Origin: a virus
DNA: 64,000 nucleotides
Direction: 5' to 3' (one strand)
IMG/VR virus record: IMGVR_UViG_3300029922_000038
Location: 1-64,000 of that record
Part shown: positions 5,693 through 32,316 of the stretch, in pieces
How the letters are laid out: each line of letters starts with the position of its first letter
Position numbering within the stretch: the stretch's first letter is position 1
Program-made: the position numbers and the translations under genes
The notes under the pieces: generated by a model
Told to the model about the DNA's origin: nothing
Seen by the model: the letters and a program-made list of their open reading frames with translations, nothing else
Database searches by the model: none

Positions 5693-5720
5693 CCAAAGTT
5701 ATAATATAAATAATATAATT

Positions 5721-6149
5721 ATGAAATTAGATAAAAATCAAGTATCTGCAATTGCTAATAAAGTATTTACAGAACTTAATAAACCATATAAAGATAAATA
5801 TGGAGAATTGTATAATAAAAATGGATATGTAAAAAATCCAATTATTGTAAAATTGACTTTAGAAGATAAGAAATTAATAGAAGAGTATAGAAAAGTAAGT
5901 CTTAAAATAAATGCTAAATATCAAAAACCAGGTTTAGCAGATATAATTCAAGCTTCTACTATTCAACTTGAAAATAATATTAAAGGTAGAGTATCTCAAG
6001 AAATTACTAAAAAACAAAATGAGTTATTAAATAATCTATTACCTAAAGTAACAAGAGATCAAATAGAAGATGAAATATTTTTATCAATTATTGAAGGCGA
6101 TATTAAAGTAGAAAATTTAATAGCAAAACTTGTAAAACAATTTAAATAA
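5721..6149 (+). CDS. hypothetical protein
   Basis: Track ORF 5658..6149; start moved to ATG 5721, downstream of the hairpin. Confidence 0.75.
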   Translation: MKLDKNQVSAIANKVFTELNKPYKDKYGELYNKNGYVKNPIIVKLTLEDKKLIEEYRKVSLKINAKYQKPGLADIIQASTIQLENNIKGRVSQEITKKQNELLNNLLPKVTRDQIEDEIFLSIIEGDIKVENLIAKLVKQFK

Positions 6150-25321: not shown

Positions 25322-26317
25322 ATGATAAATGTCTTTCCTAAGATAACAAAGTCTTTTATTCTTAATAGAATTACAGAAATAGAAATAATGGAGAGATATT
25401 TAGGTTTAAAAGTAGATACTAATAAACTATATAAATCTCCACTTAGAGTTGATAAACACCCCACATGTAAATATACATATTGGAATGGTAGACTTTATTT
25501 TAAAGATTTTAATGGTAGTTTTAATGGTGATTGTTTTAATGTTGTACAAAAAATACATAGTACTAATTTCTTAGATTCTTTATATATTATAGCAAACGAC
25601 TTTAATATATTAAAGAAACCTAAGAAAGAATTAGTAGAATATATATTTGATAAACCACCTGTTCAGGAAAAACTATCAATAGGTATTAAATCACAACCAT
25701 TTACAGATATAGATAAACAATACTGGGATTCTTATTTTATATCAGAACAATCATTAGAGAAATATTTTGTATATAGTTGTAAACAAGTATTCATTGGAGA
25801 GAATATTATTTATAATTATAGCAAGAAAGACCCAGCTTATGCTTATTACTTTGGTAATGGCAACTATAAAATTTATTTTCCATTTAGAAAGAAAGAAGAA
25901 AAAAGATTTATTAATAACTGTAATAATACTATTATTCAAGGGTATTGGCAATTGCCAAAGGAGAATAACTTATTAATTATTACTAAGTCTTATAAAGATG
26001 TTATATGTTTAAGTGAATTTAATATTCATTCAATTGCTCCTCAAAGTGAAACATGTGGGCTAACACATGGATTAATACGAGAGTTATCTCAAAGATTTAA
26101 AACTATTATAAGTTTATATGACTTTGATTTAACAGGAATAAGAGGGGCAAATAAATTATATAAAGAAGAAAATATAAAACCTATCTTTTTTACCAATGGG
26201 AGATTTAATTCTATAGATTATCAGGCAAAAGACTTTTCAGATTATTTGCATGATAATGGATTTTTAAAAACAAAAGAGTTAGTAGATGGTCTACTAACAC
26301 AAAAACTAATTAATTAA
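25322..26317 (+). CDS. DNA primase (crAss DnaG-like, TOPRIM)
   Basis: SPLRxDxxP, FKDF, GDCF, ITKSYKDV, YDFDxxG, KDFSD. Confidence 0.9.
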   Translation: MINVFPKITKSFILNRITEIEIMERYLGLKVDTNKLYKSPLRVDKHPTCKYTYWNGRLYFKDFNGSFNGDCFNVVQKIHSTNFLDSLYIIANDFNILKKPKKELVEYIFDKPPVQEKLSIGIKSQPFTDIDKQYWDSYFISEQSLEKYFVYSCKQVFIGENIIYNYSKKDPAYAYYFGNGNYKIYFPFRKKEEKRFINNCNNTIIQGYWQLPKENNLLIITKSYKDVICLSEFNIHSIAPQSETCGLTHGLIRELSQRFKTIISLYDFDLTGIRGANKLYKEENIKPIFFTNGRFNSIDYQAKDFSDYLHDNGFLKTKELVDGLLTQKLIN

Positions 26318-26323
26318 TTTTTT

Positions 26324-26884
26324 ATGAGTTCTCGTAAAATTACTGTGTACTCTACACAGACTAATAAAAAGAGTGAAGTAAATACAGATGTAGCAACATG
26401 GGCAGAACTGCAAGCAGTAATGACAGATGCTGGTATTACCCATGAAGGTCTAACTGCAACAGAAAACAGGACAAAAACTAATTTGTCTTTAGGAGCAGCA
26501 GTTCTGCCAGAAGGAGAATTTGTTCTATTTCTTTCGCCAAGTACTAAAATTAAGAGTGGTACTTCTTGGAGAGATATGTCTTATAATGACATCAGGAAAC
26601 ACGCTACTTCAATTGGTGTATCTGGTTTAGGTACAACCGCAGAAATTGGTCAAAGGATTGAAAACTGGGAGAAAACTAACAAGAATACATCATCTTCAAA
26701 TGATATTCTTAATACTAAATTTCCTACAGTAGCTGCTAAACTTGATGCTTTTATTAAGCATACAGATAAACAATTTGCAGAAGTATCAGAAGCTGTTAAT
26801 AATAGTGATTATTTTGATAATACTCCTTTTGGAGAAGATGACAATTCTAATCTTGCAAATGAAGCTGCAAGTCTTGGATTGTAA
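26324..26884 (+). CDS. ubiquitin-like protein precursor (Ubl-Gly79 plus SAP/HeH-like extension)
   Basis: Beta-grasp-like pattern ending LPEGEFVLFLSPSTKIKSG; adjacent to E2/JAB/E1 genes. Confidence 0.72.
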   Translation: MSSRKITVYSTQTNKKSEVNTDVATWAELQAVMTDAGITHEGLTATENRTKTNLSLGAAVLPEGEFVLFLSPSTKIKSGTSWRDMSYNDIRKHATSIGVSGLGTTAEIGQRIENWEKTNKNTSSSNDILNTKFPTVAAKLDAFIKHTDKQFAEVSEAVNNSDYFDNTPFGEDDNSNLANEAASLGL

Positions 26885-26905
26885 TAAGTTTCATATTTTT
26901 AATAG

Positions 26906-26940
26906 TAAAATAGGGGTAGAAATGCCCCTATTTTATTTTA
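26906..26940 (+). terminator. intrinsic terminator after Ubl gene
   Basis: TAAAATAGGGGTA-GAAA-TGCCCCTATTTTA plus T-rich tail. Confidence 0.85.
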
Positions 26941-26951
26941 ATATTTAATAT

Positions 26952-28496
26952 ATGTATGAATATAAAGCAGGAGATATAGTAAAAATAATAAATGGGAAAG
27001 GAAGTGATTTAGGTAGTATGCTAAATGGTAAAGAGGTTATATTAGATACTCAACCAGATGATGGCTATAGATTAGGTACAGATAGTAAATATAATCAAAA
27101 ATTAGTATTTTCTTATTTTGATAGGGATGGAGATTTAGTAGATTCATTATATTTTAGAGATGAAGATATAGAACTTGTAGGTTGGACATATATACCAGAT
27201 TATGAATTAATAAAAGATAAAAGGTTTAAATTAATAGAAACTGATTTAAATGAACAATTTGTTAATCCTAATTATATAAATAGTGAAGAAGTTTATAAGC
27301 ATGGACTTATAGAGTTAGATTCAAGAGGATATTTTTGTAGTTTTGGAGGATCTATGATTGATTTACAAATTAGAGTATCTTCAAATTCAGATAGCCCGAA
27401 TTATAATATTTTTAATGAACTTCAATATAAAGTAGAAATAAGATTAGATAATACTATTAAGATATTTTATAAAGAGCCTCAAGTAATATTTGATATTTCT
27501 ATTATAGAAGAATATAAAACTATATTTAATGATTATTTTAAAGAAGATTGTGAAATTAGAAAAATAAATAATATAGAATATGAATTTGTAATTCATTTTC
27601 CTGATATAATTATAAAAAATGAGTTAGATAAAACTCATCCAATTAAAGACTTATATGTATTTTTTAATCTTAAGGTATTACAAAATAATAGATTTGTCTT
27701 TATGAGAGAAAATCAATCAGATTATTATTTAAGTGGTTGTAGAGGAACAGTAACAGATAGAGAATATGCTGTAAAATATCAACATTCTCATTTATCTTCT
27801 GGTTATCATAATTCTAAATTTTGTTTAGGGACTGGCCCCATTTTAACTAATATTGCTGCATTTAATATGCGGAATGATAGTTTATTATTTGAAAAAATAA
27901 TGTTGGATATTATAGATTATATAAGTGTTGAAAGTATAGAAGGTACTCCATATATTGAATTTAAATGTGTTTATACCCCAAGAAATCAACAAAGAATTAA
28001 TATAAGTGATTTACAATTACGACAAGAATATCTAAATTTCTTATCTTATTATGATAATTTACCTGTATCTATTAGTAATTTAGAAATAAAAGTAGATGAA
28101 AATAATCCTGAATTTATTAAACAGGTATCTGCTATTACTAATTTTATAAATGGTCAGGAATCAGAAATACAAATTAGTAATAGCGATAAGAATAAATTAA
28201 TGTTAATATTTAAAAATGAAGAAGTTAGACTTAAAATTATTAAAGAAGAAAAAACAGATGAGCAAAATAAAGAGCAGCTACAAAGAGTTGCAAATACAAG
28301 AGTCCTCCAATATATCGCAAAAAAACTTAGTGAAGACTTATCAGACAAAGCCATTAGTGGAATTACCAGGAAGAGCGAAGCTGGTTATTTCACAGGAACT
28401 TTGGTTGAAGATACATCAACTTCACTTGAATGTAGGGAAAATAGAGTGGTCAGGAGTATTGTTTCTAAAAGTGGAAGGAAACTTACTAAATTATAA
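26952..28496 (+). CDS. prokaryotic E2/UBC-like protein
   Basis: YQHSHL-x8-FCLG (Cys291) resembles the HPN...CL E2 active site; gene context. Confidence 0.68.
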   Translation: MYEYKAGDIVKIINGKGSDLGSMLNGKEVILDTQPDDGYRLGTDSKYNQKLVFSYFDRDGDLVDSLYFRDEDIELVGWTYIPDYELIKDKRFKLIETDLNEQFVNPNYINSEEVYKHGLIELDSRGYFCSFGGSMIDLQIRVSSNSDSPNYNIFNELQYKVEIRLDNTIKIFYKEPQVIFDISIIEEYKTIFNDYFKEDCEIRKINNIEYEFVIHFPDIIIKNELDKTHPIKDLYVFFNLKVLQNNRFVFMRENQSDYYLSGCRGTVTDREYAVKYQHSHLSSGYHNSKFCLGTGPILTNIAAFNMRNDSLLFEKIMLDIIDYISVESIEGTPYIEFKCVYTPRNQQRINISDLQLRQEYLNFLSYYDNLPVSISNLEIKVDENNPEFIKQVSAITNFINGQESEIQISNSDKNKLMLIFKNEEVRLKIIKEEKTDEQNKEQLQRVANTRVLQYIAKKLSEDLSDKAISGITRKSEAGYFTGTLVEDTSTSLECRENRVVRSIVSKSGRKLTKL

Positions 28497-28659
28497 AGAT
28501 ATGGAGTTTACTGCTGTAGATATGTATCTTATGGATATAGGAGATGCGACAAGTACAGAGTTTGATTTCCAAGATACAGCTTGGCTAAATGCTTTTGATG
28601 AAAACCCAGATTTAATGGGATTAAAAATGGGATTATGTCACAGTCATCATTCAATGGCT
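28258..28659 (+). CDS. JAB/MPN metalloprotease, exon 1
   Basis: EWSGVLF catalytic Glu; GLCHSHHSMA; start ATG 28258 (28216 possible). Confidence 0.88.
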
Positions 28660-28688
28660 AAATATTAGTTATTTCAATAAATATTGTT

Positions 28689-28696
28689 TATATTTG
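28689..28696 (+). promoter_or_regulatory. -7 promoter element for intron endonuclease
   Basis: TATATTTG upstream of ATG 28718. Confidence 0.55.
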
Positions 28697-28717
28697 TACA
28701 TAATAAAATGTATAAAT

Positions 28718-29545
28718 ATGAAATTACTTTCAAAACAAGAAAAAGAAAAAATTGCAGAATTATATGATTCTGGATTAAATGCAGTAGAGATTAAAAGAGA
28801 GATGGGTTTAAAAAATCATCAACAAGTATATAATGTATTAAAATATTTACCTCAATATCAAGCATATAAATATGGTAGAGGGGATAATAGAAAATATACA
28901 CTAAATGAAGATTATTTTAAAATTATTAATTCAGAAGAAAAAGCATATATATTTGGTTTTATATGTGCAGATGGACATGTAGCTTTTAATAGACTAAGAA
29001 TATTAGTAGCAACAAAAGATAAAGATATACTTGAAAAAATTAGAGTATGTTTAGAGTCTTCTGATGAAGTAGAAGATGTAATTAGAGAATCCAGATTTTC
29101 TTATGGAAAAAGATTATTCTATCATTCGCAAATAGCATTTAATTCAATTAAACTTGCAAAAGATTTGTTAAATTTAGGATTAGATAGTAGAAAAACTTAT
29201 TCTTTATCATCAAAAATATTAGAAAATATTCCTCTTAATTATATGAAGGATTTTTTAAGAGGATATTTTGATGGAGATGGGAATGTTATGTATGGGAATA
29301 AATATAGTTCTGGTAAGAAATATCTTATTCAGATAGCTGGGAATAAAGAGTTTTTAGAAAATTCTTTTGGAAAATATTTTCCAACAACTAATAAGTATTA
29401 TTTTTTCCCTAAATCTATACAAACTTGGTGTTATAAACTATCATCTAAAGAAAATGTGAATAAATTTTTAGAATATATTTACAAAGATTCTACAATTTTT
29501 CTTAATAGAAAGTATAATATTTATAAAAATAATGTGGCCATTTAA
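28718..29545 (+). CDS. LAGLIDADG homing endonuclease (two motifs, N-terminal HTH)
   Basis: AYIFGFICADG and FLRGYFDGDG. Confidence 0.93.
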   Translation: MKLLSKQEKEKIAELYDSGLNAVEIKREMGLKNHQQVYNVLKYLPQYQAYKYGRGDNRKYTLNEDYFKIINSEEKAYIFGFICADGHVAFNRLRILVATKDKDILEKIRVCLESSDEVEDVIRESRFSYGKRLFYHSQIAFNSIKLAKDLLNLGLDSRKTYSLSSKILENIPLNYMKDFLRGYFDGDGNVMYGNKYSSGKKYLIQIAGNKEFLENSFGKYFPTTNKYYFFPKSIQTWCYKLSSKENVNKFLEYIYKDSTIFLNRKYNIYKNNVAI

Positions 29546-29805
29546 AACACATTGAATTGCTGGAAACCTAAGTCTATTTATAGATATGGCAATCAGCAGC
29601 TAAGATTAATCTTATGATTAATAAAGTTCAGAGACTATCGAAAACACAGTTTAAAAACTGGAAGTTAGTAGAGTACATCCAAGTGGATGGAAGCGGTGTG
29701 ACTTTACACTTAGTAAAGTATGATATAGTCCGATACCACGTAACTACTGAAGTTACTATACCGAAAGGGTGGAAGTTGTCTAACGAACAACAGGTAAATT
29801 TATTG

Positions 29806-30603
29806 ACATTTTTTTCAGGTACAGATATAGGGCATTTACATTCTCAATCTCCAGATCATAATTACTTTCTATCTTTAATTGTTAATTTTGCGTGTGAACC
29901 AATTGCTAAAGTAGCTTTTGCTTCTACGCGAAAATTAGCTTCATCATCTTCTTTTAGTTTTAGAGATGATGAAGGGAATATACAATTTCAAGAAGATAAT
30001 AGTAATAAAGAAGAAGATATTACAGTAGTATTTAATTGTGATGTATTTGTAGAAATAGAACCTAAACTTCTTGATAGAATAGATGAATTAAAAGAAGCTA
30101 AGAAAAATAGGTATAAACAATTTACAAATAATTGGAATACTAAAAAACAAAATTATATTCATACTGATTTTGATTGGGAAAAATGGAAAGCTGAACAAAA
30201 TGGAGAAGGAATAGCTACTGTTTGGGATACTGAAGGTAAGAGATTAAATGCTACTGATATTCAAACGGAGTTTGATTTTAGTAATCATGAAAAACTTATT
30301 GCAGATTCACAAATAGAATATTTTACTAAATGTTTACTTGCTGATACTTATAATGATTATGAGAAAACAGTAGAATTATTAGTAGAAGATAGAAATGCTT
30401 GTGTAGATACAAATGCTGAAGCAAGACAATGTTGTATGGCCATGCACATGATGTATGATTCTGTTTTTCATGATGATACTTATTTTACTGAAGTCATGAC
30501 TAAAGTTATAGCTCTATTAGGTAAATATAAAAGTGATTTTACAACAAAGATGATTTCTATCATTAAACAAGAATTAAAAGAATATGTCAGCACAGAATTA
30601 TGA
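29806..30603 (+). CDS. JAB/MPN metalloprotease, exon 2
   Basis: TFFSGTD completes HxH-x7-S-x2-D; FLSLIVN; spliced protein about 399 aa. Confidence 0.88.
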   Translation, partial: TFFSGTDIGHLHSQSPDHNYFLSLIVNFACEPIAKVAFASTRKLASSSSFSFRDDEGNIQFQEDNSNKEEDITVVFNCDVFVEIEPKLLDRIDELKEAKKNRYKQFTNNWNTKKQNYIHTDFDWEKWKAEQNGEGIATVWDTEGKRLNATDIQTEFDFSNHEKLIADSQIEYFTKCLLADTYNDYEKTVELLVEDRNACVDTNAEARQCCMAMHMMYDSVFHDDTYFTEVMTKVIALLGKYKSDFTTKMISIIKQELKEYVSTEL

Positions 30604-31291
30604 TAGATTTAAAGATGCTCCTTGGTTCAAACCCCTTAAAGTAATTGTAGGGGGTGCTGGAGGTATAGGTTCCAATCTTATTTATCTCTTAGCTAAAATG
30701 CCATATCGAATTTATATATATGATTTTGATGTAGTAGAAGCACATAATAGTTGTCAAATGCTTGGAGGTTTTACTAATATAGGTAAGTTAAAAACAAGAG
30801 CAGTAAGAGAACTTGCACAAAAATTATCAGATAATTATGGTATTAGAGAGTTTGGAGAATATACTTCAGAAGGAATGGTAGACGATATTATGTTTGCTGG
30901 ATTTGATAATATGAAAGCAAGGAAGTTAATGTATGATAACTGGAAACAATATCAATTAACTAAAGTAGAAGAACCTGCTATAGAAGAACCTAAGAAAGAG
31001 GTTAATTTATTTGTAGATATGAGATTAGCAGCAGAAACAGGTATTATATATTTTATAGACTCTAAAGAAAGAATGGAAAGATATGAAGCTGAATTATTTG
31101 ATGATTCAGAAGTTCCAGATGAACCATGTACTTTTAGAGCTACTGCTCATGCTTCTATGTTAATAGCTTCTTATGCTGTTGCAGGGTTAGTTAATAAGGT
31201 AACTAATGTTGAATGGGGAATAGAGGCAAGAGAAGTACCATTTAAACTTAATTTTGAATTACCATTATTTAATATGAAAACAATTGTATGA
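30584..31291 (+). CDS. ThiF/MoeB/E1-family adenylyltransferase
   Basis: GAGGIGS, YDFDVVEAHN, K, FDNMKAR, DMR, candidate catalytic Cys182. Confidence 0.92.
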   Translation: MSAQNYDRFKDAPWFKPLKVIVGGAGGIGSNLIYLLAKMPYRIYIYDFDVVEAHNSCQMLGGFTNIGKLKTRAVRELAQKLSDNYGIREFGEYTSEGMVDDIMFAGFDNMKARKLMYDNWKQYQLTKVEEPAIEEPKKEVNLFVDMRLAAETGIIYFIDSKERMERYEAELFDDSEVPDEPCTFRATAHASMLIASYAVAGLVNKVTNVEWGIEAREVPFKLNFELPLFNMKTIV

Positions 31292-32316
31292 TAGAGCAAT
31301 TACATATAGAAAATAATTTTGGATTTATATTACAAAATCATGGCATTAAAGAAAGTAATTCTTATTGTGAATATGTTCCTTTTTATATATTAAAGCAGAA
31401 TACAGATTCTTTAATAAAATTAGAACAAGAGAATAGGCAAGGTATAGAAGAAATATATAATAATTTATATCATGAGTTTCAATTATGTCAAGATCAAACT
31501 TTTTCTCAATATTATACTATTGCTGAATTACCTGCTTTATTTCAAGAAAATGATATTATTAGTCATAGATTTAGATTAAGAAATTATGAAGAAGGAATAT
31601 ATTCTCCTTTTAATTTAGAAATAGAAGAAAATATAATTAGGCAATATGAAGATACTAAAAAATTTATATCTTTATTTTCATTAGTAATTCCTATTAAATA
31701 TGTACCTTATGTACAAATATGTTTAATGTTAGAAGAACCTATTGATTTAAGAGTATATGAATTTTGGATTAAAGAAGATTTTGATATTAAAGATTCTATT
31801 TATACTAATTATAGAAAACTATATAGAAAGTATTTATTACCTGATTTAAAAGAGAATAATGTTCCTATTGTAGTTAAAAAAGATATAGATAAAGAACTTT
31901 ATTTCTTTCCTGAAATGCCTAAATTTAAAAGAACTTCTGATTATGATAAATATGTAGAAGAACTTGTTAAAGATAGTATTATTAAATTAAGGATAGATAA
32001 TGGTATACAAGGTATTAATAATGATTTTCGTGTAACTTTTGAAAGTAATGATTATATATTAGAAGAAGGTACATTAAATGTTAATGGTACTACTTGGAGA
32101 ACTTTTAATAATTCTGGAGATAATTTAGTATCACAAATAATGAGTACTGATACTTATCAACCGTTAACTGCTGCAAGATTAGATTCATTTATATCAAATT
32201 TAACTTTTAATTCAAATAGTTCATTAGGTAGTAATATGCCCCCTGAAGAAAATCTAAATCATATTAATAATGAATTATATCAAGAAGCATTAAGGAGTAT
32301 GGAAACTTCTGAATAA
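31288..32316 (+). CDS. hypothetical protein coupled to E1 gene
   Basis: ATGA overlap, 342 aa. Confidence 0.8.
   Translation: MIEQLHIENNFGFILQNHGIKESNSYCEYVPFYILKQNTDSLIKLEQENRQGIEEIYNNLYHEFQLCQDQTFSQYYTIAELPALFQENDIISHRFRLRNYEEGIYSPFNLEIEENIIRQYEDTKKFISLFSLVIPIKYVPYVQICLMLEEPIDLRVYEFWIKEDFDIKDSIYTNYRKLYRKYLLPDLKENNVPIVVKKDIDKELYFFPEMPKFKRTSDYDKYVEELVKDSIIKLRIDNGIQGINNDFRVTFESNDYILEEGTLNVNGTTWRTFNNSGDNLVSQIMSTDTYQPLTAARLDSFISNLTFNSNSSLGSNMPPEENLNHINNELYQEALRSMETSE

Follow-up and report, generated by a model that had tools for sequence, protein, structure and literature searches.

Organization and conservation of the gene block

The gene block described here comes from a crAss-like phage relative from peat soil (IMGVR_UViG_3300029922_000038), and the window is the 64,000-nt stretch of that record that was analyzed. 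A sequence-only reading had placed five co-oriented genes directly after a primase gene, and both their open reading frames (ORFs) and their coordinates were confirmed, as were KIKSG in gene 1 (g1), Cys291 in gene 2 (g2), and Cys182 in gene 4 (g4). Gene 1 spans 26324-26884 (186 aa) and carries KIKSG at residues 75-79, and gene 3 (g3) encodes a JAB peptidase. The features of the block are as follows.

25322-26317, + strand: primase gene, DnaG-type; upstream neighbor and conserved anchor of the block
26324-26560, + strand: g1 residues 1-79, ubiquitin-like (Ubl) beta-grasp domain ending KIKSG
26561-26884, + strand: g1 residues 80-186 and stop, variable helical tail with an acidic end; cap or cargo behind the Gly
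26904-26937, + strand: terminator-like hairpin between g1 and g2; 15-bp stem, GAAA loop, U-rich run after it
26952-28496, + strand: g2, candidate E2-like carrier; 514 aa, core at approximately residues 195-345
28258-28659, + strand: JAB/JAMM peptidase exon 1; start ATG 28258 or GTG 28330, ends ...HSHHSMA
28660-29805, + strand: group I intron, 1146 nt; Rfam RF00028, 54.5 bits (gathering score, 50)
28694-29545, + strand: LAGLIDADG homing endonuclease ORF in the P1 loop; PF14528, E 3.9e-10; phrog_4645 endonuclease, 3.9e-45
29806-30603, + strand: JAB exon 2, TFFSGTD..., C-terminal helical region; alignment A7; phrog_16107, 5.8e-12
30584-31291, + strand: g4, minimal E1-like adenylation enzyme (ThiF family); 235 aa, GGAGGIGS, Cys182
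31288-32316, + strand: g5, translationally coupled orphan gene; 342 aa, its ATG overlapping the g4 stop as ATGA

In tblastn, the region at 25322-26317 showed homology at E 1e-22 to 7e-25 with genes annotated as primase in FpV4, crAss001, and DAC15; its own Pfam matches, to Toprim and a zinc ribbon, fall below the cutoff. Viral contigs with the gene set beside primase number at least 262. Of the 75 related loci whose sequence reaches 4.6 kb or more upstream of E1, 74 keep the order g1-g2-g3-g4, a count that includes many close kin of one another. The clustering of g1 to g4 is nonrandom, and the set of Ubl, E2 candidate, JAB, and E1 that the earlier reading had noted is borne out. JAB exon 1 runs over the g2 end in the +1 frame, an overlap that is constant in 78 of 80 loci. 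A programmed frameshift from g2 into JAB was considered, but the constant overlap is the only sign of a fusion product; g1, g2, JAB, and g4 are four separate ORFs.

The proposed cluster of five genes stands for the first four, whose order is kept across relatives, but g5 has no homologue. Among 5.8 billion proteins it matches only itself, and comparison with the genes behind E1 in relatives gave hhalign values of at most 2.3%. No family or fold lead was obtained, and the low-quality Atlas prediction (pLDDT 0.31) yielded no usable match. Residues 169-258 of g5 contain a weak shared stretch found by two methods at nonsignificant levels.

The ubiquitin-like protein and the interrupted JAB gene

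The Ubl domain of g1 has a beta-grasp fold; its profile gave no matches among PDB sequences. The residues S78-G79 are invariant in 14 diverse g1 sequences and are present in 120 of 120 database relatives. Gly79 is internal in g1, so its exposure as a C terminus would need a predicted cut. Likeness between g1 and its relatives stops at approximately residue 91, and the tail, modeled at pLDDT <62, differs among relatives in both length and content. In one relative, a ribosomal L7/L12 C-terminal domain occupies the tail position; among 14 g1 homologues scanned with Pfam, none had a SAP/HeH family there. An 81-residue ORF between primase and g2 in locus L010, ending ...TKAGN, resembled a free-standing Ubl with a one-residue cap; with a Ubl-domain HMM score of about 0, it serves as a lead only.

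The spacer between g1 and g2 folds into a stable hairpin (MFE -20 kcal/mol, z -4.7), and a hairpin followed by a U-rich run occurs in this spacer in all eight genomes folded, with unrelated sequences. Because a terminator-like hairpin sits behind g1, its product is probably made in excess.

Exon 1 of the JAB gene has an open frame that runs through to ...HSHHSMAKY* at 28668, and its homology to uninterrupted JAB genes begins at approximately residue 43 of the frame. Besides scoring above the Rfam gathering threshold, the intron has the anatomy expected of group I. In P1, AAUGGCU at the exon end (28653-28659) is matched by GGCCAUU (29536-29542), and a U-G pair lies at the 5' splice site; in P10, ACAUU (29806-29810) pairs with AAUGU (29531-29535); and the terminal base of the intron (29805) is G. 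The last codons of the LAGLIDADG ORF overlap the intron guide sequence. As the earlier reading had claimed for JAB after splicing, the two exon pieces fit 14 uninterrupted homologues with neither gap nor overlap. Both exon-intron borders are bridged by DNA contigs from two further peat samples; the spliced joint did not appear in two metatranscriptome runs, in which cover amounted to a few contigs and was zero over part of the stretch. Judged from these features of the DNA, the group I intron in the JAB gene is real.

The JAMM motif E...H-x-H-x7-S-x2-D is present, with E48, H112, S113, H114, S122, and D125 nearly invariant in alignment A7, and the motif residues of this phage come from both exons. 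In the PDB, CSN5 was matched at E 0.0046. The Pfam Prok-JAB model (PF14464) hit eight of eight uninterrupted homologues at 15.6-20.6 bits, below its cutoff of 25, and did not match the exon pieces of the window. The intron splits the metal-binding motif of JAB, so that the peptidase would need splicing and the pathway would be gated by RNA self-splicing.

The E1-like enzyme and the candidate E2-like carrier

The earlier call of g4 as a ThiF/E1 protein held, with a Pfam ThiF (PF00899) match of 41.6 bits against a cutoff of 28.1. The g4 family profile matched UBA5 (7.6e-11), MccB, UBA3, Cap2, ThiF, and MoeB in the PDB. A glycine-rich loop and the Arg/Asp pair are present, with G24, G26, G27, R113, and D145 invariant in 18 g4 sequences. 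C182 is the sole invariant Cys of the family, and the PDB alignments end before it. Cofolding of E1 with Ubl residues 1-79 gave a score of 0.13 against a mark of 0.32, which counts neither for nor against binding.

An E1 of this kind could also belong to sulfur metabolism, with the Ubl adenylated and thiocarboxylated like ThiS, MoaD, or CysO, the carrier trimmed by JAB, and the sulfur going to a nucleotide, cofactor, or DNA modification. In keeping with this, the best NCBIfam matches of g4 are ThiF/MoeB-type enzymes, all of them far below cutoff, and database annotators have named the E1 gene "thiamine biosynthesis protein." Sulfur carriers end in Gly-Gly, however, and the present modifier ends in Ser-Gly; moreover, there is no rhodanese, desulfurase, or sulfur-acceptor enzyme among the five genes, and the block is located among replication genes in phages. 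Although Ubl-E1-JAB trios are known in sulfur metabolism, according to Iyer et al. (2006; PMC1779556), we regard a sulfur carrier role as very unlikely, and an E1 acting in protein conjugation is our preferred reading of g4.

The assignment of g2 is the weakest link in such a pathway. Apart from an N-terminal stretch of approximately 125 aa that is peculiar to this phage, g2 belongs to a family of 3311 representative clusters. It carries H278-S279-H280, then nine residues, then F290-C291-L292-G293, and N223, H278, S279, H280, C291, G293, E327, S328, G331, and P333 are invariant in 147 family sequences, placing an invariant Cys after a His/Asn-bearing motif. The core is modeled with high confidence (AF2 pLDDT 85-96), and its structural neighbors are E2, UEV, and kinetochore-domain proteins, all weak matches. 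By language model, PF14460 (Prok-E2_D) occurs in 28 of its 30 neighbors, which serves as a lead only.

Searches by sequence were negative. None of 97 g2-family members matched the Pfam E2 families at E <= 1, the g2 profile had no matches among PDB sequences at E <= 10, and Pfam, NCBIfam, PHROGs, and PADLOC supplied no family name. Alignment of the family to 10 verified Bacteroidota PRTRC_B proteins gave an hhalign probability of 0.5%, and the BFVD matches for g2 were uncharacterized crAss-like homologues only. The previously proposed ubiquitination-like pathway of the phage's own is partly supported, by the Ubl, JAB, and E1 motifs and by co-conservation, but not by any sequence match of g2 to E2.

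Ubl, JAB, and E1 might accordingly act as proposed while g2 is a substrate, an adaptor, or an unrelated cysteine/histidine enzyme, and E1 would hand the activated Ubl straight to its target, as in some minimal E1-like systems. The failure of every sequence-based test of E2 membership speaks for this, as do the weakness of the structural matches, a length approximately three times that of a UBC domain, and a conserved C-terminal half with no fold name. Against it stand the E2/UEV structural neighbors and the PF14460 neighbors, which come from two different methods, and the position of g2, which is that of E2 in Ubl-E2-JAB-E1 sets. The invariant His...Cys-x-Gly order, which we take to be the layout of an E2 active site, counts in the same direction. 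Weighing these points, we find a non-E2 role for g2 unlikely and treat g2 as a candidate for a very diverged E2-like protein.

Relation to known systems and the proposed cascade

PRTRC cassettes resemble the block in encoding a small single-domain ThiF/E1 (approximately 245 to 270 aa) right after a Prok-E2_D protein, the family carried by the nearest language-model neighbors of the g2 core, and in residing, like it, on mobile genetic elements. The PRTRC cassette also has a JAB and a Ubl. In Bacteroidota loci, PRTRC_B scores 129-132 bits, with PRTRC_ThiF directly after it at 242-247 bits. In the block, PRTRC_ThiF (TIGR03736) reached 16.7 bits on g4 against a cutoff of 144.75, other PRTRC models did not match the other genes, and g2 has no PRTRC_B or Prok-E2_D match in NCBIfam or Pfam. 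Unlike in PRTRC, the JAB gene here lies between the E2 candidate and E1, the Ubl has a long tail, g2 is 514 aa long, and the setting is a phage replication module instead of a plasmid or ICE.

Bil operons (BilA-BilB-BilC-BilD) are anti-phage ubiquitination operons (PMC11601596) that share with the block the four roles of Ubl, E2, JAB, and E1 without an E3; lacking an E3, the E2 would choose its targets itself. The PADLOC BilD model matches g4 at 3.5e-6 over positions 214-318 of 453 only, and the PADLOC models, Bil included, did not match g1, g2, or the JAB pieces. A BilD-type E1 combines inactive and active adenylation domains with a cysteine domain, whereas g4 is one 235-aa domain. Type I Bub (BubAB, BubCD, BubE; formerly 6E.1; Ye et al. 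2024, PMC11601596) consists of Ubl-E2 and JAB-E1 fusions together with a serine protease of the DUF6527 family, and its chemistry runs through serine/tyrosine oxyesters, a serine standing where an E2 has its cysteine. It is a bacterial operon with defense-type regulators, in contrast to a phage gene set of four separate genes with an invariant Cys (Cys291) in the E2 candidate and no DUF6527 match in Pfam.

CBASS, too, combines an E1-like adenylation domain with an E2 and a JAB, all acting on a glycine-type C-terminal end. The PADLOC E1-E2 model matches g4 at 1.6e-6, a CBASS JAB model matches a JAB homologue at 4.6e-6, and Cap2 is among the PDB matches given above. However, Cap2 is a fusion for which the CD-NTase itself is the protein conjugated, in place of a separate Ubl, whereas E1 and the E2 candidate are separate here, and the PADLOC models found no CD-NTase or effector among the five genes.

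The lambda/T1 tail assembly proteins I (Ubl) and K (JAB plus NlpC/P60) are the one phage-borne Ubl-JAB pair that we found in print (Iyer et al. 2006, PMC1779556). As described there, a beta-grasp domain with a conserved C-terminal Gly is joined to a second domain, with a predicted JAB cut, as in g1. On this model, JAB might simply cut the g1 precursor and free the tail, or the Ubl, as a replication-phase protein with no conjugation. Tail clusters are known to contain phage Ubl and JAB pairs with neither E1 nor E2 (PMC1779556), and the g1 tail is partly conserved, with its acidic end and the L7/L12 domain of one relative. However, the lambda/T1 pair belongs to tail-assembly clusters and has no E1 and E2 (PMC1779556); both are present here among replication genes, and processing alone would not account for the retention, in 74 of 75 loci, of a Cys-bearing g2 and of an E1 whose nucleotide-binding residues are intact. 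We consider it quite unlikely.

Our preferred reading, which we hold to be rather probable, is that the phage carries a ubiquitin-like conjugation cascade of a type of its own. From the motifs, intron anatomy, co-conservation, and folds (the UBC-like neighbors of g2 being weak), we infer successive steps of cleavage, adenylation, thioester formation, and conjugation. The g1 product would be made as a precursor, probably in excess. JAB, makeable only once the group I intron is spliced out, would cut it behind Gly79, releasing the beta-grasp modifier of 79 residues and, apart from it, a tail fragment. E1, with its 235 residues, would adenylate Gly79, and the activated modifier would move to Cys291 of g2 and from there to lysines of phage or host proteins in the replication phase; JAB may also remove the tag again.

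Prokaryotic ubiquitin-like conjugation has, to our knowledge, been demonstrated in cellular systems only, mostly anti-phage ones (Bil, CBASS Cap2/3, Bub). Our literature search, with subscription journals and supplements outside its range, found no papers that connect crAss-like phages with Ubl, E1, E2, or JAB. Public records name two of the genes "thiamine biosynthesis protein" and "metalloprotease domain" and leave the others "hypothetical"; these annotations would need correcting. Culturable relatives make the gene set open to direct tests: crAss001 grows on Bacteroides intestinalis, DAC15 on B. thetaiotaomicron, and FpV4 on Flavobacterium psychrophilum. The crAss001 counterparts are gp79, gp78, gp77, and gp76, of which gp79 corresponds to g1 and gp77 is the JAB, free of an intron. 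Since the modifier ends in K-x-K/R-S-G, tagged lysines should carry a Ser-Gly remnant after trypsin, with a computed mass of +144.05 Da.

The broader claim is that a virulent-type phage lineage of thousands of crAss-like genomes, the culturable crAss001, DAC15, and FpV4 included, runs a complete cascade of precursor Ubl, E1, highly diverged E2, and JAB in replication, with the peat-phage version gated by self-splicing; in our judgment, it could equally well prove right or wrong. If it is true, protein "ubiquitination" would be a tool of bacterial viruses, besides cells and their defenses, and with a Ubl-E2-JAB-E1 set in the hands of a phage, the known anti-phage biology would be turned around.

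A conserved gene block behind the primase

The source virus record comprises 89,352 bases and was found repeatedly in peat metagenomes. As the sequence-only reading had claimed, five genes lie in the same orientation directly 3' of a primase homolog (26324-32316), and the ORF listing locates every motif quoted in that reading at its stated position. Gene borders within the block overlap, except that between g1 and g2. The genes and their surroundings are as follows:

25322-26317, primase homolog (tblastn against the annotated primases of FpV4, crAss001, and DAC15, E values of 1e-22 to 7e-25)
26324-26884, + strand, g1, ubiquitin-like (Ubl) precursor, 186 residues
26952-28496, + strand, g2, candidate E2-like carrier, 514 residues
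28258-28659 and 29806-30603, + strand, g3, JAB/JAMM peptidase, two exons
28694-29545, LAGLIDADG endonuclease ORF in the P1 loop of the g3 intron, its last codons overlapping the guide sequence
30584-31291, + strand, g4, E1-like ThiF enzyme, 235 residues
31288-32316, + strand, g5, orphan gene, 342 residues
32542-33159, gene after the block, matching RusA-like Holliday junction resolvase families (phrog_1682, 1e-07)

An exonuclease-type gene adjoins the resolvase gene, and both complete the replication/recombination setting of the block. In FpV4, primase and block are separated by an inserted gene for uracil-DNA glycosylase; the two adjoin directly in crAss001, bajarodcaudo virus 1, and DAC15.

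A tblastn search with the E1 gene retrieved 81 phage records, every one below 60% identity, including 29 Flavobacterium phages, 29 Bacteroides crAss-type phages, crAss001, DAC15, and DAC17. A relative is also encoded in 262 of 280 candidate stretches from IMG/VR, and 80 loci were kept. Family HMMs run over 84 loci detected g1 in 78, g2 in 80, g3 in 82, and g4 in all 84. In the synteny check proposed from sequence alone, 74 of the 75 loci that extend 4.6 kb or more upstream keep the order g1-g2-g3-g4; these counts are not independent because many loci are close kin. The exception, related locus L010, is the sole locus without a recognizable g1. Between its primase and g2 lies an 81-residue ORF (L010:4945-5199) ending in TRTKAGN. 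The Ubl HMM does not detect this ORF, which might encode a separate Ubl capped by a single residue. Further E1 relatives (L085-L093) occur on contigs filed under Puia, Promethearchaeia, Bacilli, Acholeplasmatales, Spirochaetia, and Clostridium MAGs. Several of these contigs are of phage-genome length (approximately 90 to 110 kb) and are therefore probably binned phage contigs; two, of 374 kb and 640 kb, could be integrated or misassembled.

The fifth gene, suggested in the sequence-only reading as one that may select targets, is coupled to the E1 gene through an ATGA overlap, in agreement with the coupling first proposed. Protein searches with g5 found only g5 itself, family and fold searches gave no lead, and its profile showed no similarity to the genes 3' of E1 in the relatives. 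Those genes belong mostly to one large family of the crAss001 gp75 type (70 of 81 distinct sequences); the remainder comprise a second family, whose link to the first has a probability of 93.7%, a group of the FpV4 type, and two singletons. None of these genes received a Pfam name. As the post-E1 genes differ in family and g5 has no relatives, the fifth position is a variable slot.

A JAB peptidase gene split by a group I intron

A group I intron runs through the JAMM motif of the JAB gene (RF00028, scoring 54.5 bits against a gathering score of 50). Exon 1 closes with the codons CAC AGT CAT CAT TCA ATG GCT at 28659. Read from the sequence, AAUGGCU (28653-28659) pairs with GGCCAUU (29536-29542), with a U-G pair at the 5' splice site, and the 3' exon start ACAUU (29806-29810) pairs with AAUGU (29531-29535); the final intron base is G (29805). 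These guide-sequence pairings place the LAGLIDADG ORF in the P1 loop. DNA contigs of two more peat samples bridge both exon-intron borders, and the intron therefore belongs to the genome there too. Among the few contigs of two RNA libraries, none held a spliced exon joint, and one continues unspliced across the 3' splice site.

The two exons together encode the JAB protease that the sequence-only reading proposed: aligned as separate rows, the two exon products tile 14 uninterrupted homologs with no gap or overlap (HSHHSMA over HSHNTMA and TFFSGTD over VFFSGTD at the junction), and the JAMM residues E, HxH, S, and D are nearly invariant. Recognition of the JAB family is weak but consistent. 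The Prok-JAB model matches all eight homologs searched, each below cutoff, and a CBASS JAB model matches one of two (4.6e-6). A PDB profile search reached CSN5 at an E value of 0.0046, with CSN5 or Rpn11-like chains in 11 of 15 rows; the two top rows are designed helical repeats, which we judged spurious in appearance.

The JAB gene overlaps g2 by 167 nt (GTG start at 28330) or 239 nt (ATG start at 28258), and the overlapped g2 end (28258-28496) is predicted to be disordered. In 78 of 80 loci, the JAB start falls inside the end of g2 and uses the +1 frame; counted from stop to stop, the median overlap is 71 nt. The two exceptions are L008, whose g2 is frameshifted, and L046, whose JAB is split. 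The latter, on an IMG/VR contig (L046:5418-7726), also carries a group I intron (RF00028, 69.8 bits at 5711-5930), inserted a few codons upstream of the site in the window, within the H-S-H codons (exon 1 ending in GLMH, exon 2 SHDQMSTFFSGTD). No intact endonuclease ORF was seen on that strand. This intron seems to have entered the same conserved motif independently. The intron core in the window (29553-29678) has matches in 125 records. Over approximately 125 nt, it shares 83 to 84% identity with stretches of Flavobacterium psychrophilum phages that carry no annotation, and many of the records come from Salmonella and Escherichia phages. Related group I introns thus circulate among distant phages.

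The E1-like enzyme, the modifier, and the candidate E2

The ThiF/E1 assignment of g4 is confirmed by a Pfam ThiF score above cutoff and by PDB matches to adenylation domains: its family profile finds those of UBA5 (7.6e-11), MccB, TcdA, UBA3, Cap2, ThiF, UBA6, UBA1, MoeB, and SAE2, all covering the N-terminal half only. G24, G26, G27, R113, D145, and C182 are invariant. C182, a candidate catalytic cysteine, sits in a Pro-Cys-Thr context that is more like a structural motif known from E1 adenylation domains than like a catalytic loop. At 235 residues, g4 is a bare adenylation domain. E1 proteins of gut relatives have N-terminal additions of up to approximately 170 residues; genes of gut crAss-type phages (related locus L002:6542-7000 and others) encode 300 to 400 residues owing to an N-terminal extension that is missing here and in FpV4-type phages.

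UFM1 and ATG8 have single-Gly ends, comparable to the Ser-Gly end of the Ubl. Both this end and UBA5 as the top PDB match of the E1 suit conjugation better than a sulfur carrier pathway, which we consider very unlikely. In a g1 homolog (L084:2022-2984), the tail behind Ser-Gly contains the C-terminal domain of ribosomal protein L7/L12 (Pfam E value of 2.9e-14), so the g1 tail is able to hold different cargo domains.

The tests of the proposed E2 role of g2 are divided. The g2 family forms 3311 clusters at 50% identity (1659 at an E value of ≤1e-30), and across 147 sequences ten residues never vary: N223, H278, S279, H280, C291, G293, E327, S328, G331, and P333. AlphaFold2 models residues ~200-345 at a pLDDT of 85 to 96 as a helix, four strands, the HSH loop, Cys291, and two helices. 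An ESM Atlas feature search with residues 195-345 placed PF14460 (Prok-E2_D) on 28 of 30 named neighbors, mostly viral clusters, with scores of 0.93, 0.92, and 0.91. However, Foldseek returned no match to the model at an E value of ≤0.001, E2 HMMs matched none of 97 family members, and hhalign gave 0.5% against ten Bacteroidota Prok-E2_D proteins, two of which were verified as PRTRC_B, each directly followed by PRTRC_ThiF. Taken without context, the g2-specific evidence is insufficient to carry the E2 reading; weighed with genomic context, we regard g2 as a likely E2, and the same pathway without g2 as its E2 as unlikely. The first ~125 residues of g2 (26952-27330) have no counterpart in relatives and a low-confidence model, and form a lineage-specific N-terminal extension.

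Relation to known systems and a proposed cascade

None of these genes reaches the threshold of a defining HMM of PRTRC, Bil, Bub, or CBASS, and the gene set therefore lies outside every named system. It resembles these systems in parts of its working; PRTRC is nearest in makeup and type I Bub in logic. The Bub system described in PMC11601596 is a solved precedent in which a Ubl precursor is matured by a JAB-E1 protein and the E1 lacks a cysteine domain. Searches of openly accessible article texts turned up no account of crAss-like phages having a Ubl pathway. Only two of the genes bear names in public records: the E1 is a "thiamine biosynthesis protein" (in one record an "E1 enzyme family protein"), and the JAB is a "metalloprotease domain."

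A working Ubl conjugation cascade is the best reading of the block and, in our view, a moderately likely one. The g1 protein would be made as a precursor and cut by the JAB behind Gly79. That the genes serve processing only, as PMC1779556 proposes for lambda tail proteins I and K, seems to us distinctly improbable. In the conjugation cascade, the E1 would then adenylate the cut modifier, which would be transferred to Cys291 of g2, with conjugation as the final step.

RNA folding of the 67-nt spacer between g1 and g2 predicts a hairpin (15-bp stem, GAAA loop) with a U-rich run behind it (26904-26937, z = -4.7). A strong hairpin with a downstream U-rich run occupies the same spacer, in unrelated sequences, in all eight genomes folded (this phage, FpV4, crAss001, bajarodcaudo virus 1, DAC15, and three IMG/VR contigs), with weak z-scores in two (-1.7 and -2.2). 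Such a terminator-like hairpin after g1 fits a Ubl modifier that would be produced in excess over its enzymes.
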